Below, in pieces: positions 38,777 through 43,366 of a DNA stretch of 64,000 nt. The notes under the pieces are model-generated. The model saw only the letters and a program-made list of their open reading frames with translations. It was not told the origin of the DNA and ran no database searches. Each line of letters starts with the position of its first letter. Position 1 is the first letter of the stretch. The stretch lies in the NCBI GenBank assembly GCA_964549525.1, contig CAZJUR010000003.1:2030-66029 (forward strand). The letters run 5' to 3'. The position numbers were made by a program, and so were the translations under genes. The stretch comes from an uncultured Candidatus Saccharibacteria bacterium (GTDB lineage Bacteria > Patescibacteriota > Saccharimonadia > Saccharimonadales > Saccharimonadaceae).

Positions 38777-39646
38777 TTAAGATATAGTTGAATGAAACGG
38801 GATATTGAGCTTTTTTAAAACTACTTCAAATCGTTTGTAACCATCTTGATTACGAAGCTCAACCCACTCCACTTTAAGGCTATCAAGCTGGCGTTTATTA
38901 AGGTCAGATAATTTATCGGCTACAAATACTGAGCTCGAACGAGCAATCACTGCATCAGCGCTTTCAGGGTTGCCTTGTCCCATGAGTTTAACTTCACACT
39001 TGTGTTCATGCCCCTGTTGGTCGACGAGATAAAAGTCGATCTCTCGTGTGATTTCATCTAATTTTTTTTCAGTTTTAGACTTTATTCGATAATGTTCACT
39101 CGACACGCCATATAGTTTGCACAATTCCTGCATCAATGGTTTCTCGACTCTTTTCCCTGCGGTACTCCATAGACCACCACGAAGTGCAGCTCGCTTGACC
39201 GCAAGTGTATTGATGACAATTAATGTTTCACCGACATTTAAATCGACACTGACGCCATGTAATTTTAGAGTTAGCGTCAGGTCAATAGTATCTTCGTTGG
39301 TGACTAATTCTTTAATGCTGTTATAGAGTACATCATAATGTTCGTTGGCTGCTTCAAGAACAATCTCTCGTCGGGCTGAATTATACATATTGGTGATGGT
39401 TTTTTTGTTAAGGCCTGAGTTAATAGCAATTTCATCAGTCGAAAGTGTTTCATCTAAAAATTCCTTTTTATACCAGTCGGTTGTGATGTCATGATTACGT
39501 AGTTTCGCTTCGATAACTTTTTTAAAAAAATCCAATGAATATTGCATAAATTCAGCATTAATCAGGCTGACAATCTCGATGCGATAATCCTCTCCTTTTA
39601 GTAGCTTGGCAATAATACGCTGTACGACTTCATCAGTAATAGTCAT
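38777..39646 (-). CDS. Putative type II restriction endonuclease (PD-(D/E)XK-like), partner of the adjacent methyltransferase
   Basis: 289 aa with a C-terminal candidate catalytic motif IDFYLVDQQGHEHKCEVK (D-x13-E-x-K). AAGGAG Shine-Dalgarno (39652-57) lies inside the upstream gene, and the ATG overlaps the MTase stop (ATGA at 39643-39646). I cannot name a family. Confidence 0.5.
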   Translation of the reverse strand: MTITDEVVQRIIAKLLKGEDYRIEIVSLINAEFMQYSLDFFKKVIEAKLRNHDITTDWYKKEFLDETLSTDEIAINSGLNKKTITNMYNSARREIVLEAANEHYDVLYNSIKELVTNEDTIDLTLTLKLHGVSVDLNVGETLIVINTLAVKRAALRGGLWSTAGKRVEKPLMQELCKLYGVSSEHYRIKSKTEKKLDEITREIDFYLVDQQGHEHKCEVKLMGQGNPESADAVIARSSSVFVADKLSDLNKRQLDSLKVEWVELRNQDGYKRFEVVLKKLNIPFHSTIS

Positions 39647-40911
39647 ATATTCTCCTTTATATATTTCTTAAATTGATTGATCGAAAAACAAGATGGAGTA
39701 GTTTCTTCATGAAAAAGAGAAGGTGTTTGGACAGAAAATCGCTGTTTCATATACGAAAAATATTCGTCGTTATTTTCCGTCATAAAGAAATACCGGCCCA
39801 TTTTCTGTGCAGTATCCCCTAGCGTACCAGAGCCTGCAAATGGGTCATATATCAAATCTCCTTTGTATGAGTAATATTGAATTATTTTACGACACAGCGT
39901 TTCTGGAAAAACAGCTGTATGATTTTTATTATAAACTGGGTCAATCTTCCAAACATTACTGCTATCATAATCTCCCATAACTTTACTCGCTTCGACAATT
40001 TCATTTGGGTACGCACGCATATTCCAGTCAAGTAATTTAGGAGTTTTTTTACGATATACCATGAGCATTTCTGTTACAGTGTTTGGTTTATACCCTAGTG
40101 GTTTGCGATGTTGCATGAAGCCGCCGACTCGATTTTTGACACTAGCTTCAGGTTTGAGCCAAATAATATCATCGATATATTCCCAACCCTCCTCAACTAT
40201 AATACTATGCAGATCAAAAGGAATAGGGTAGCGTTTACTCGCGTGTTGTCGACTAACACGAGGAACAATAATCGGTGAGGTATTGATGATAAAAAAACGA
40301 CCCTCTTTTGTAACACGTGCTAATTCTCGTACGATTGTTCTCAAAAAATTGAGGTATTCATTGTAACTTTTGTAAAATGTATAGTCCCGTGCGTTGTAAT
40401 AAGGTGGAGAGGTAAAGGTAAGATGAAAAGATTCGTCAGGTAATAATTGGAGTGTCTGTAATGCATCGCCGGAGACAATAACATTTTTGAGTACATCTGG
40501 CGATACTACTCGCAAATCAATTGTCTTTTTTGGAGCTTCGGAAAGCGATTTTAAAAGTATTTCTTGAATCATTTCATTCTCGTGACCAAGTAGTTCATGT
40601 ATTTTTTTTTGTACGAGAGATTTGTCTTTAAAAATCAACAGTGCACGTACTACTTGTATCACAACTTTTGGGTCCGGATCATTAGTAATAGAACATAAAA
40701 AAGAGATAGATTTAGGGTCACGTAATCTGCCCAGAGACGATACCGCTTCCCGTCGAACGTGCGAATGAGTATCGTGTTTGATAATTTTTTTAAAATATTT
40801 TACAAGACTTTGATCTTTCAGTTTCCCGAGTTCTTTGACTGCATGAAGACGAACGCTCGGCTTTTCCGCTTCAAGCGCCTTTACTAAAACATTTCTTTCT
40901 TCTACTCCCAT
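39643..40911 (-). CDS. Beta-class N4-cytosine/N6-adenine DNA methyltransferase with N-terminal HEAT-repeat domain
   Basis: Motif IV (FTSPPYYNARDY) precedes motif I (DPFAGSGTLGDTA), the N6_N4_Mtase-type order. Residues 1-130 form HEAT/PBS-lyase-like repeats (VRLHAVKELGKLKD, HVRREAVSSLGRLRD, PKVVIQVVRALLIF). Confidence 0.85.
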   Translation of the reverse strand: MGVEERNVLVKALEAEKPSVRLHAVKELGKLKDQSLVKYFKKIIKHDTHSHVRREAVSSLGRLRDPKSISFLCSITNDPDPKVVIQVVRALLIFKDKSLVQKKIHELLGHENEMIQEILLKSLSEAPKKTIDLRVVSPDVLKNVIVSGDALQTLQLLPDESFHLTFTSPPYYNARDYTFYKSYNEYLNFLRTIVRELARVTKEGRFFIINTSPIIVPRVSRQHASKRYPIPFDLHSIIVEEGWEYIDDIIWLKPEASVKNRVGGFMQHRKPLGYKPNTVTEMLMVYRKKTPKLLDWNMRAYPNEIVEASKVMGDYDSSNVWKIDPVYNKNHTAVFPETLCRKIIQYYSYKGDLIYDPFAGSGTLGDTAQKMGRYFFMTENNDEYFSYMKQRFSVQTPSLFHEETTPSCFSINQFKKYIKENI

Positions 40912-40924
40912 ACGTATCTATCTC

Positions 40925-40933
40925 AGTATATCA
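40925..40933 (-). promoter_or_regulatory. Extended -10 (TGaTATACT) upstream of the methyltransferase gene
   Basis: The reverse complement reads TGATATACT, with 13 nt between the hexamer and ATG 40911. Confidence 0.4.
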
Positions 40934-41000
40934 GCAACGAAGATCATGAAGAATTGTATGATGAAATTTTCTCTGAAATGGCTCCCTTGTATGCTGAAAT

Positions 41001-41059
41001 TCGAACCTATTTCGAGCAAAATGGCTGAGCTTACAAATTTTTGTTGGAAATAGGTTCGA
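41001..41059. repeat. 13-bp perfect inverted repeat (TCGAACCTATTTC / GAAATAGGTTCGA) with 33-nt spacer
   Basis: Arms at 41001-41013 and 41047-41059. The arms contain a T-loop-like GGTTCGA. No U-tract follows on either strand. Confidence 0.6.
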
Positions 41060-41125
41060 GCTTCGTCGTATAATTGATTTAGATCAAGACTATCGTGCCG
41101 CTCGCGCGGCGCGTAAATATCAATT

Positions 41126-41199
41126 TGGCTGGGGATGAGGGATTCGAACCCCCGATCATGGGACCAGAACCCACTGCCTTACCACTTGGCCAATCCCCA
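41126..41199 (-). tRNA. tRNA-Gln (anticodon CUG), CCA encoded
   Basis: The reverse complement reads TGGGGAT-TG-GCCAAGTGGTAAGGC-A-GTGGG-TTCTGGT-CCCAT-GATC-GGGGG-TTCGAAT-CCCTC-ATCCCCA-G-CCA. The U1:A72 pair and overall sequence closely resemble E. coli tRNA-Gln. Confidence 0.93.
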
Positions 41200-41203
41200 C
41201 TAA
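41150..41203. repeat. 54-bp direct repeat, copy A (inside intact tRNA-Gln)
   Basis: Identical to 41336-41389, read base by base. Covers tRNA positions 1-50 plus 4 nt of 5' flank. Confidence 0.9.
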
Positions 41204-41335
41204 CTACGATTATACTTGAAAGGTACGAGGGTTCGAATCTGAGATTCGACCCACCTTTGGCGGGTCCGAAACTTCACGATTGCCAACTAGTTAGCATCGG
41301 AAGGTTTCCTTGCGAAGTGTCGCTGACACTTCTCA

Positions 41336-41385
41336 CCCCGATCATGGGACCAGAACCCACTGCCTTACCACTTGGCCAATCCCCA
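41336..41385 (-). pseudogene. Truncated tRNA-Gln copy (5' two-thirds only)
   Basis: Acceptor 5' strand, D arm, anticodon arm (CUG) and variable loop are present. The following sequence cannot form a T arm or pair with the acceptor 5' strand. Confidence 0.8.
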
Positions 41386-41389
41386 CTAA
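41336..41389. repeat. 54-bp direct repeat, copy B
   Basis: Identical to 41150-41203, offset by 186 bp. Confidence 0.9.
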
Positions 41390-41464
41390 TCTGTGAAAAG
41401 TATAACAAATCGCTGCTTGACGAGCAATCAATCACTTGGTACGATAGAAAAACATTAACAAATT

Positions 41465-41575
41465 AAATATCAAGAGGCAGGGAGAGGACTAGCTCGACGA
41501 TCTGCCAGCAACCAATCGTAGATTACGATCAGGTGCTCCAACTAGCCGCCTGCTTATCAGACGGAATGATGTGAA
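41465..41575 (+). promoter_or_regulatory. SAM-I (S-box) riboswitch aptamer
   Basis: AUAUCAAGAG-GCAG-GGAGAGGACUAGCUCGACGA-UCUGCC-AGCAACC-[AUCGUA-gau-UACGAU]-CAGGUGCUCCAACUAGC-[CCGCCUG-cuuau-CAGACGG]-AAUGAUGU matches the SAM-I consensus (CUUAUCAAGAG...GGGA.UGGCCCGAUGA...GGCAACC...GGUGC.AA.UCC.GC...AGAUGAG) with helices P1-P4 in order. Confidence 0.85.
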
Positions 41576-41584
41576 ACAACATTT

Positions 41585-41639
41585 CTCCTTTCCATGCAGC
41601 ATGAGCAAGCATAATTAACGAAAGGAGTTTTTTTATTTT
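41585..41639 (+). terminator. Riboswitch expression platform: terminator / SD-sequestering hairpin
   Basis: CTCCTTTC (41585-41592) pairs with GAAAGGAG (41620-41627), which is also the Shine-Dalgarno of the downstream gene. It is followed by TTTTTTTATTTT and ATG 41640. Confidence 0.7.
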
Positions 41640-42809
41640 ATGAAACAATCAAGGGGCTTTCATACAAAATTAGTGCACGCAGCTGAAGAGCCAGATCATG
41701 CCACTGGCGCAATCGCACCTATCCTGGTGAGATCGAAAACATTTGCCCAACCAGGTTTAGGCAAAACCCCAACTTGGCAGTATTCGCGTGGCAAAAATCC
41801 TACTAGGAGTATTCTAGAAAAAAAATTATCAATTCTCGCAGGCGGTGGACAGACAACTGTTTTTGGATCTGGTGATGCTGCGACCACAATGTTTTTATTG
41901 ACACTAAAACCCGGCGATCATATTTTGGCCTGTCAAGAATTATATGGTGGAACAGTGAGATTATTTGACCAATTGTTCGCGAAGTTTAAGATTTCGGTTA
42001 GTTATATCGACATAGAAGATGAAGCAGAAATCAAAAAAAATCGGACAAAAAATACGGTAGCTATCTGGGTAGAAAGTCCCACTAATCCCAAGCTCGGAGC
42101 CATCGATCTCCGACGTGTAGGCGTGCTTGCAAAAAAATATGCTTTACATTATGTAGCTGATCTTACCTTTGCACCGCCGTGTGCAGTCCAACCATTTGAC
42201 TACGGTGTTGATACGGTCATTTATAGTCTCAGTAAATATTTTGCTGGACATAACGATGTGATTGGGGGCGCAGTAGTAACAAAAGATAAAAAATTAAACG
42301 AACAACTCGAATGGCTGCAATGGTCAGTCGGTGCATGTCTTTCGCCCGACGAATGTTATCGAGTTATTCAAGGTTTGAAAACACTGAAGTTGCGATGGGA
42401 TCATGTCAGCCAAACTGCGGATCAGGTTGCTGCTTTTTTGAATAATCATAGCAAAGTTAAAGCCGTATACCATCCGACAATTACTGGACATGATTCTCGA
42501 GGCGTACTGGCTCGTCAGATGCATCAACGATATGGCAGCGTGATTGGTTTTGATCTGGTAACATCGGAGAAAGCAAAGCTTGTTCAATTTGTTGAGCAGT
42601 TAGTTCGCTTAAGAATTGTCATATATGGTGAAAGCTTGGCGAGTCCAGAAACAATTATTGCTCATCCGGCGAGCATGAGTCATCGCGGGATGACCGAAGC
42701 ACAACGTCGTGCACGAGGTATTACAAATAACTTTTTCCGTCTCAGTGTTGGGTTTGAGGATAGCCAGGATATCATTCAGGCGCTAGATGACGCTTTGAGT
42801 GCGATATAA
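41640..42809 (+). CDS. Cys/Met-metabolism PLP-dependent enzyme (cystathionine gamma-synthase / beta-lyase / O-acylhomoserine sulfhydrylase family)
   Basis: 389 aa with the PLP-lysine block YSLSKYFAGHNDVIGG and a C-terminal RLSVGFED block. Preceded by the SAM riboswitch. Confidence 0.88.
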   Translation: MKQSRGFHTKLVHAAEEPDHATGAIAPILVRSKTFAQPGLGKTPTWQYSRGKNPTRSILEKKLSILAGGGQTTVFGSGDAATTMFLLTLKPGDHILACQELYGGTVRLFDQLFAKFKISVSYIDIEDEAEIKKNRTKNTVAIWVESPTNPKLGAIDLRRVGVLAKKYALHYVADLTFAPPCAVQPFDYGVDTVIYSLSKYFAGHNDVIGGAVVTKDKKLNEQLEWLQWSVGACLSPDECYRVIQGLKTLKLRWDHVSQTADQVAAFLNNHSKVKAVYHPTITGHDSRGVLARQMHQRYGSVIGFDLVTSEKAKLVQFVEQLVRLRIVIYGESLASPETIIAHPASMSHRGMTEAQRRARGITNNFFRLSVGFEDSQDIIQALDDALSAI

Positions 42810-42817
42810 TAATATCT

Positions 42818-43366
42818 ATGATTACAATCGGCATTATTATTGGCTCTACGCGACCCGGCAGAGTAGCGCCTCAAGTTGCAAATTGGTTTTATAAAGAAGC
42901 TCGTCAATCTCAGGCAGCACATTTTGAACTCATCGATATTCGTGATTTTAATCTCCCGCTTCTCGATGAAGATAGGCCAGCTAAAGTCAGTAAAGAGCAT
43001 ACTAGAAAATGGAGCTTTACCATAGATCGATTGGATGGGTTTGTTTTCGTGACAGCCGAACACAACAATTCATTTCCAGCAAGTTTAAAAAATGCGATTG
43101 ACTATTTAAACAGTGAATGGAGCTATAAACCCGTAGCCTATGTCGCGTACGGTTTTGCACTGGGCCATCGTGCTGTCCAAGCGCTTCGTCCAATTGCCGC
43201 CCAATTTCACCAGTATGATTTACGTGAAACTGTTCATATCCAATTAGATGGAAGTGACACTGTGCCAATTTTAGATAAACATACCACACAAGCCAAAGAG
43301 GTGATTCAATCAATTGCCTTTTGGTCAGAACAGATGAAAGTCGCTCGACAAAAACTAGCATCATAG
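42818..43366 (+). CDS. NAD(P)H-dependent FMN reductase family flavoprotein
   Basis: IGIIIGSTRPGRVAPQVANW and FVFVTAEHNNSFPASLKNAIDY are typical of the FMN_red family. Confidence 0.85.
   Translation: MITIGIIIGSTRPGRVAPQVANWFYKEARQSQAAHFELIDIRDFNLPLLDEDRPAKVSKEHTRKWSFTIDRLDGFVFVTAEHNNSFPASLKNAIDYLNSEWSYKPVAYVAYGFALGHRAVQALRPIAAQFHQYDLRETVHIQLDGSDTVPILDKHTTQAKEVIQSIAFWSEQMKVARQKLAS

Follow-up and report, generated by a model that had tools for sequence, protein, structure and literature searches.

The closest described counterparts of the locus analysed here are the tRNA-linked repeats of Escherichia coli, of which 22 units are found in ten tRNA or rRNA operons and which include the 178-bp repeats of the tyrT operon (RtT RNA, RF00391) as well as rrA/rrB/rrF (PMC8144298, citing Egan & Landy 1978 and Rudd 1999). 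According to this publication, the end of a unit is identical to the last 18–19 bp of the upstream gene, and three of the repeats, which bind Hfq and CsrA, are flanked by a terminator on either side and produced by read-through; the repeats have been known since 1978 with no function established. Here, a locus of related design is described in a 64,000-nucleotide stretch from an uncultured Candidatus Saccharibacteria bacterium (assembly GCA_964549525.1, contig CAZJUR010000003.1, positions 2,030–66,029), hereafter called the window. On its minus strand, an intact tRNA-Gln(CUG) gene is preceded by a partial copy of itself that carries a structured module of 94 nt. This module belongs to an uncatalogued family of folded modules of about 94 nt, all matches of which come from one order of Saccharibacteria-type bacteria. 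The members of this family are inserts in the hairpin loops of spare partial tRNA copies that lie beside an intact gene of the same kind.

The tRNA-Gln(CUG) locus of the window

The intact tRNA-Gln(CUG) gene, which encodes its CCA end, occupies 41126–41199 (−), where ARAGORN calls it and the Rfam tRNA model matches it over its full length (60.4 bits). A 54-bp sequence made of nucleotides 1–50 of this tRNA and a 4-nt leader is present twice on the same strand: copy A (41150–41203) lies inside and just ahead of the intact gene, and copy B (41336–41389) is a displaced 5' part of tRNA-Gln that ends in the 5' strand of the T-stem. The two copies are identical at 54 of 54 positions (0 mismatches), 186 bp apart and separated by 132 bp, and the 54-mer has exactly two matches in the window even when up to three mismatches are allowed (chance expectation 0). 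Copy B lacks both the T-arm and the 3' strand of the acceptor, and its Rfam match is only partial (tRNA model positions 10–42, 17.6 bits). Read on the minus strand, the order is copy B, a 132-nt spacer and copy A, with which the intact tRNA-Gln starts. These points had been made in a first-pass annotation drawn from the letters of the stretch: the identity of the two copies, the complete tRNA around copy A and the truncation of copy B all hold, and the ARAGORN run that it had proposed calls the complete tRNA-Gln(CUG).

The structured module spans 41246–41339 (−) and is recognized by the covariance model of the family (R1, described below) with 110.6 bits and an E-value of 5e-21. It opens with GGGG/UGAGAA, its first 4 nt doubling as the 5' strand of the T-stem of copy B; it is nested in the T-stem of the partial tRNA and closed by that stem (GGGG/UGAGAA...GGG/UCGAAUC). 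Its hairpins A (41311–41335), B (41268–41308) and C (41248–41266), all on the minus strand and defined by family covariation and single-sequence folding, are all recovered when the window copy is folded alone (z = −3.1). The ORFs that overlap the 132-bp stretch run through the tRNA or the module.

Two hairpins noticed in the first-pass annotation, one with an 8-bp stem (41314–41332) and a T-loop-like palindrome (41229–41252, −), are both present. In the minimum-energy fold, the latter pairs a remnant of the T-loop (41243–41252, GGGUCGAAUC) with an inverted copy of the T-arm (41229–41239, GAUUCGAACCC). The minus-strand motif ATTCGAACCCTCGTACC had been taken for the 3' end of a tRNA; instead, 41226–41239 is a reverse-complement copy of the T-arm of the same tRNA (41141–41154; 14 nt, 93% complementary), and the comparison of the spacer with the reverse complement of the tRNA gives p = 0.010. 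Ahead of the intact tRNA, a joint (41204–41228, −) includes a −10-like box, TATAAT (41209–41214), which ends 9 nt before the +1 of the tRNA. Both the inverted T-arm piece and the −10-like box are found family-wide and contradict the description of the spacer as T-arm debris, as does the fact that this spacer is made of a conserved covarying module and a short joint. Another box, an extended −10 (TGtTATACT, 41399–41407, −), is located 13 nt ahead of copy B. It is probably the original promoter of the tRNA, and since it is retained there, expression of the truncated copy B is plausible.

A family of modules in spare tRNA copies

The genome to which the window belongs (G000) is a 713-kb draft in 14 contigs. 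A BLAST search of this genome with the locus finds the spacer also beside tRNA-Gln(UUG), tRNA-Lys(CUU) and tRNA-Val(GAC), the whole layout being repeated with 74% identity at tRNA-Gln(UUG), on another contig. At each of these three sites, an insert of about 90 nt interrupts the T-arm of a partial tRNA copy; the insert begins with UGAGAA right after the 5' strand of the T-stem and ends just before the CGAAU/GAxxx of the T-loop. The alignment of the four copies, which folds into hairpins A, B and C closed by the T-stem, was used to build R1. With this model, a further copy is detected ahead of tRNA-Glu(CUC), where a decayed 5' copy carries it in its D-loop, bringing the total for the genome to five (at Gln-CUG, Gln-UUG, Lys-CUU, Val-GAC and Glu-CUC). 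The window copy is the best-scoring R1 copy and shows what defines the family, i.e. three covarying hairpins A, B and C after GUGA, closure by a host stem and tRNA sense. R1 also matches, more weakly, a longer variant in the D-loop of a tRNA-Gln(UUG) fragment. This second module of about 110 nt (C9:1899–1997, minus strand; ~1730–1880 of locus L002) shares its initial AGUGAGAA with the main module and includes GCUGAGGCGGGGUCGCGG; it is also present, as a conserved element, in genome G041 and, in genome G276, it hosts a nested copy of the main module.

Among 61 genomes of the same family and order, R1 detects about 100 copies in 25 genomes, with a patchy distribution and at most 13 copies per genome, and in a phylum-wide sample of 251 genomes its matches are confined to the same order. 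A search with an exact pattern retrieves at least 120 stretches in named assemblies, almost all from Candidatus Saccharibacteria/Saccharimonadales, and a scan of viral contigs with the exact pattern gives 0 matches. The only Rfam matches at E ≤ 1 over 39000–43000 and at E ≤ 10 over 41100–41420 are tRNA and SAM riboswitch, with no family corresponding to the module and none of the known self-cleaving ribozymes (hammerhead, twister, twister-sister, hatchet, pistol, hairpin and HDV-like); at E ≤ 1 over 39000–43000, no group I or other intron family is matched either. The riboswitch in question is a SAM-I riboswitch (RF00162, 61.1 bits) at 41464–41575 (+), ahead of a 389-aa ORF (41640–42809) and divergent from the tRNA-Gln locus. 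Literature searches retrieved no description of the element.

The fold of the module is supported by covariation among 42 distinct copies: 96.9% of the cells carry a standard pair and 32 of the 36 pairs have changed on both sides. None of 500 shuffles reaches the observed pairing values, and pairing falls to 29–41% when the partners are slid by 1–3 columns. Pairs of the G·U/U·G type are much more frequent than A·C/C·A ones (83 versus 10), two positions being mostly G·U. This excess implies that selection acts on the structure in the tRNA-sense strand, be it RNA or the single-stranded form of that DNA strand. The modules share a covarying and strand-specific fold in which three hairpins are carried by a closing stem that the host provides.

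The context of 101 copies was examined beside tRNA genes. Two mirror-image architectures are found. In the 3'-type (39 copies), an intact tRNA of the same strand ends 64–88 nt before the module; in the 5'-type, which is the layout of the window (26 copies), an intact tRNA of the same strand starts 40–71 nt after it. One copy has an intact same-strand tRNA on each side and 35 copies, at contig ends, in arrays or in decayed loci, were left unassigned. None of the 101 copies has an adjacent tRNA on the opposite strand. About twenty tRNA species serve as hosts. The 3'-type units successively include the intact tRNA, a terminator hairpin, about 40 nt, about 10 nt of variable loop/T-stem, the module and the remnant from T-loop to CCA, and a second terminator often follows. 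The 5'-type units begin with the tRNA from +1 to the insertion point, which is located in the T-loop, the D-loop, the anticodon loop or the variable region, followed by the module, about 10 nt more of tRNA, the joint and the intact tRNA.

The repeated blocks reach no further than the mature tRNA does, as the identity over the next 10 nt is only 4.1/10 beyond CCA and 3.5/10 upstream of +1. A −10-like box is found in the last 40 nt of 22 of the 26 5'-type joints, mostly 8–16 nt before +1 (6.9 expected from shuffles), and a terminator-like hairpin with a T-run directly follows the intact tRNA in 29 of the 39 3'-type units. Taken with the ends of the blocks, these signals indicate that the intact tRNA is always a self-contained gene and that the interrupted fragment lies outside of it. 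Duplicates without a module are also found: in genome G006 (L018, A4 columns ~340–375), an intact tRNA-Gln(CUG) is followed, after a 12-nt spacer, by a second copy of the last 22 nt of the tRNA (TCGAATCCCTCATCCCCAGCCA), so module-free 3' duplicates exist as well.

In 25 of 37 3'-type units, what separates the terminator from the module is a sequence that corresponds, with some divergence, to the reverse complement of the final 38 nt of the tRNA (p < 0.01 for each unit), as compared with 0 of 37 in the forward control. These units can be drawn as a forward tRNA, a terminator, a reverse arm, a short loop and a forward fragment with the module. Judging from its sequence, the T-loop-like hairpin of the window is the 5'-type equivalent of this inverted arm and a regular feature of the family.

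At the window locus, the intact tRNA-Gln is a self-contained gene and the interrupted copy is dispensable. More generally, each interrupted fragment of G000 has an intact partner. The apparent absence of tRNA-Val(UAC) from this genome does not result from an interruption: contig C3 begins inside this gene (C3:1–55, just beyond the left end of the window), which is cut exactly at the T-loop by the contig start. In G276, a near-closed genome made of a single contig and carrying 15 copies, ARAGORN finds 35 tRNAs and every species that can be assessed is intact. Among the essential species, only tRNA-Ile(GAU) and tRNA-Ala(UGC) are missing. These two tRNAs are normally encoded between the 16S and 23S rRNA genes, and their loss through interruption by a module was rejected, as the contig ends inside the 16S gene and the 16S–23S region is unassembled. 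Nothing in these gene sets suggests that intron-like removal of the module would be required. The contig of G276 ends about 50 nt after a 16S motif, so this genome is not truly closed; its 23S rRNA gene (L230, 7016–10493) is 3478 nt long, compared with 2925 positions for the model, with about 550 nt of insertions.

Age, spread and origin of the units

The first-pass annotation had suggested that the perfect identity of the two 54-bp copies reflects a recent event or gene conversion. The second proposal is reasonable; the first does not agree with the comparison with related genomes that the same annotation had called for, as the layout recurs across genera and families. The 5'-type layout with insertion in the T-loop at tRNA-Gln(CUG) is common to G000, G006 and G023, which belong to three genera, and G023 also shares one neighbouring gene. 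The sister layout at tRNA-Gln(UUG), including both inserts, can be aligned over its entire length between G000 and G041, which belong to different families (67% identity); the hairpins show compensatory changes, and the second insert is likewise in the D-loop. The five modules of G000 are not mutual closest relatives, and the best match of the window copy anywhere is only 84% identical. Although the tRNAs themselves vary from one genome to another, copy B is identical to copy A both in G000 and, if an additional insert is disregarded, in G006; in G023, two compensatory pair swaps in the anticodon stem distinguish the two copies. These comparisons show that the layout of the window locus is, on sequence grounds, old. 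Because the same tRNA-Gln layouts recur across genera and families, they also indicate that the 54/54 identity results from concerted evolution, with gene conversion between the two repeats at their distance of 186 bp, or from selection rather than from a recent event. As close direct repeats should be prone to deletion, this persistence would argue for retention.

The modules show clear signs of movement. Among 65 copies with a known host tRNA, the nearest copy belongs to the same genome for 19 copies (mean 4.2 and maximum 12 in 500 permutations), often at a different tRNA species, and only 9 copies have their nearest copy at the same tRNA species (permuted mean 3.6, maximum 12). These values show that the module has spread between tRNA species within a genome. 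In overlapping or nested pairs, the next copy starts from the GGGGU at the opening of hairpin C, and tandem arrays of units with a period of about 190 nt are also found. The interrupted fragments gather further inserts, such as the longer module in the D-loop at tRNA-Gln(UUG) and, in G006, a small hairpin element. The latter (ACCCCACAAAAUG.AAUUUUGUGGGGU) is located in the anticodon loop or the D-loop of interrupted tRNA copies (L018 on C47 and L090 on C86) and is a separate loop-seeking element. When modules are removed in silico and ARAGORN is run on the product, convincing full-length tRNAs are obtained at two loci only, calls at L007, L055 and L057 having been rejected as due to permissive calling. 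One is a tRNA-Lys(UUU) with the module in its T-loop (L044, 5130–5290, contig C2 of G054), located 3.6 kb away from an intact tRNA-Lys(UUU), which is accompanied by a module unit of its own, with two-component-system and acetyltransferase-like ORFs in between. The other is a Gln-like tRNA (L062, position ~330–520, contig C95 of G038) with a CUA anticodon, which would read amber codons if functional; no intact tRNA is found within 400 nt of it.

Combining these data, we favour, with some reserve but as the likeliest account, the following model, in which function and spread are the inferred parts. On the minus strand of the window, the locus successively comprises the old extended −10 box, nucleotides 1–50 of the tRNA (copy B), the module in the T-loop, the hairpin formed by the remnant and the inverted T-arm, the new −10 box and the complete tRNA-Gln. 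The fold of the module would act in the tRNA-sense strand, most likely as RNA. Transcription from the old promoter would produce a leader made of the 5' part of the tRNA and the module, which would be cut off when RNase P matures the downstream tRNA. New copies would arise by a copy-and-paste process, through template switching or gene conversion at short homologies, namely GGGG on one side and the conserved T-loop on the other. The same processes could also yield local partial duplications, inverted arms, locally matching flanks and copies nested at GGGGU. The 54/54 identity would be kept by gene conversion with the neighbouring gene or by selection against divergence from it.

Several points weigh against this model. 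The copy-and-paste process is deduced from the anatomy of the junctions alone, and a catalytic, ligand-binding or protein-binding role of the module is hypothetical. The strand asymmetry of the fold fits RNA and single-stranded DNA of the same strand alike. A strict two-hexamer sigma-70 scan lists no minus-strand promoter or terminator at the locus and calls neither −10 box; the boxes are therefore a reading of the sequence, backed by the enrichment of such boxes at the level of the family. In G276, tRNA-Ile(GAU) and tRNA-Ala(UGC) fall in the unassembled part of the rRNA operon, hence outside the census of intact copies. Lastly, one module copy lies beside a large serine recombinase gene, and reverse transcriptase genes are enriched in element-bearing genomes (11 of 25 with the element, 4 of 36 without), which leaves an RNA-mediated route possible.

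These last two observations bear on the main rival explanations. The first-pass annotation had read the locus as a recombination scar, which stands as far as a partial tRNA duplication tied to inserted DNA is concerned, but not for an integrase. The locus could nevertheless be the scar of an integrative element if a site-specific recombinase made a crossover in the T-loop, the module and the joint being the remnant or the end of an island that carried the replacement tRNA part with its promoter. The inserted side does supply what rebuilds a working tRNA (the 5' part and a −10 box here, the 3' part and a terminator elsewhere), and some pairs of modules flank a cargo of 3.5–4 kb (L044) or a large serine recombinase gene (L043). 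In the latter case (contig C16 of G041), the frame of the recombinase (PF00239 and PF07508; 1437–3362, −) runs into a module copy, and the 4.1-kb segment is present in two tandem copies; in G000, a serine recombinase frame (562 aa; C9:641–901, +) adjoins the tRNA-Gln(UUG) locus. However, most units are only about 190 bp long and gene-free, and the occurrence of large serine recombinase genes is not associated with that of the element (18 of 25 element-bearing genomes, 24 of 36 others). The flanks always match the local tRNA though the module moves between tRNA species, and insertions are also seen in the D-loop, the anticodon loop, the variable region and even hairpin C of the module. At the window, only 132 bp separate the repeats. 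The 22-mer of the tRNA-Gln 3' end occurs once in the 64 kb, so no further 3'-end repeat bounds a neighbouring block of genes; the first-pass annotation had itself rightly called a duplication on the 5' side unusual for integrase sites. Such an origin also leaves the strand-specific covariation unexplained. It seems improbable.

In an RNA-mediated process, the module RNA, acting as a ribozyme or with a protein, would enter the exposed loops of a mature tRNA and a reverse transcript of the chimera would then recombine into the DNA next to the tRNA gene. Like the mature RNA, the duplicated blocks run from +1 to CCA, the insertion points are loops that are exposed in the folded tRNA, and full-length interrupted tRNA genes exist (L044 and L062); the enrichment of reverse transcriptase genes points in the same direction. 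In contrast, the genomes richest in copies (G041, G046, G047 and G006) have no RVT_1 match, and in the 61 genomes neither large serine recombinases nor reverse transcriptases track the element. The single reverse transcriptase match of G000 lies at C8:514–993 (+), in a 534-aa frame. Moreover, CCA is encoded by the genes here and is thus undiagnostic, a simple cDNA would not be expected to place a terminator, an inverted arm and a new promoter between the copies, and no known ribozyme family of Rfam matches the locus. This route is unlikely, if a little less so than the integrative one. Finally, a collapsed or chimeric join could have duplicated a part of a single tRNA-Gln, as the genome is a 14-contig draft, module copies are often at contig ends and contig C3 starts exactly at the T-loop of tRNA-Val(UAC). 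However, the spacer is a genuine member of the family, and the architecture is found again, diverged to 74% identity, beside tRNA-Gln(UUG) on a different contig, as well as in independently assembled genomes, among them the near-closed one, which makes an artefact very unlikely indeed. In other assemblies, too, many module copies are found at contig ends, so it is likely that these repeats cause breaks in Saccharibacteria assemblies.

Comparison with known systems

Several known systems share only some traits with the units described here. Like the attL and attR repeats of islands and prophages, they include a direct repeat of a tRNA part that flanks an insert, and the insert rebuilds an intact gene. 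In contrast to these, at the window it is the 5' part that is repeated, the 132-bp insert is devoid of integrase and the module lies inside the loop of the fragment; furthermore, the module spreads between tRNA species with locally matching flanks. The duplication of an att site was thus rejected for the window, where no repeat of the 3' part bounds an integrase-carrying island. REPINs and miniature inverted-repeat transposable elements are also short, multicopy, hairpin-rich and patchily distributed, with nested and tandem copies, but the module has neither terminal inverted repeats of its own nor target-site duplications, the inverted arms being copies of the local tRNA. As for tRNA introns (group I or archaeal bulge-helix-bulge), they likewise are inserts in tRNA loops, and several inserts per copy can be found; however, only one half of the tRNA is present in the interrupted copies that bear the module, these copies always adjoin an intact gene and no group I core is found in Rfam. 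A bacterial group I tRNA intron was rejected for the window itself, since a 3' exon is missing from copy B, the intact gene lies at a distance of 186 bp and no Rfam intron family is matched at E ≤ 1.

The tRNA-linked repeats of E. coli are much closer in design. At the tyrT-tyrV locus of strain K-12, four RtT units match RF00391 at 133–138 bits. In such a unit, the insert is closed by GGGGAAGG/CCUUCCCC, i.e. the T-stem of tRNA-Tyr and three acceptor bases, begins with AUGAGAA and ends just before the AAUCC of the T-loop (GGGGAAGG/AUGAGAA...GAGUA/AUCCUUCCCC). At the window as in E. coli, therefore, a partial tRNA copy hosts the insert in its T-stem, and the insert starts with (A/G)UGAGAA. Both families consist of multicopy non-coding units of tRNA operons in the orientation of the tRNA, many units lie between two terminators, and function is established in neither. 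The end of the 3'-type units repeats the last ~20 nt of the neighbouring tRNA to CCA (21–23 nt versus 18–19 bp); this placement is seen in 39 of the 101 copies, with blocks of 21–23 nt ending at CCA, but not at the window, where the module is upstream of the tRNA and nucleotides 1–50 are repeated instead of the last 18–19 bp.

Despite this shared design, no homology is detectable in either direction: RF00391 (threshold 45 bits) finds nothing in 41100–41420 of the window even at E ≤ 10, and R1 reaches at most 7.4 bits (E 0.24) on the E. coli locus. The fold also differs, that of the module family consisting of three hairpins on a four-way junction. As neither model detects the other family and the folds differ, the family is treated as sharing the tRNA-linked-repeat design while standing outside RF00391. 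It further differs from the E. coli repeats by the mirror-image 5'-type with its new promoter, by insertions in D-, anticodon and variable loops, by the long inverted tRNA arm and by its hosts, which belong to a distant phylum and have tiny genomes. A bolder proposal would make the module an active RNA of a new class, either a small ribozyme or a protein-recruiting scaffold that would recognize tRNA hairpin loops and insert into them or act on them, with the tRNA fragment as an address; together with the E. coli repeats, it would then form two branches of one ancient and widespread tRNA-dependent RNA element. We regard this proposal as improbable.

Saccharibacteria have some of the smallest bacterial genomes, in which useless DNA is rarely kept. 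The modules show clear signs of movement between tRNA genes and of retention at the same loci across genera and families. They also explain 'half tRNA' calls, tRNA pseudogenes and contig breaks at T-loops during the annotation of Saccharibacteria assemblies. Taken together, these data provide a second, unrelated-looking family with the tRNA-linked-repeat design, this time in very small genomes and with a much stronger comparative support for its fold than the E. coli repeats have (more than 100 copies and 32 covarying pairs), so that the question of what tRNA-linked repeats are for and how they spread becomes testable on a well-defined RNA.

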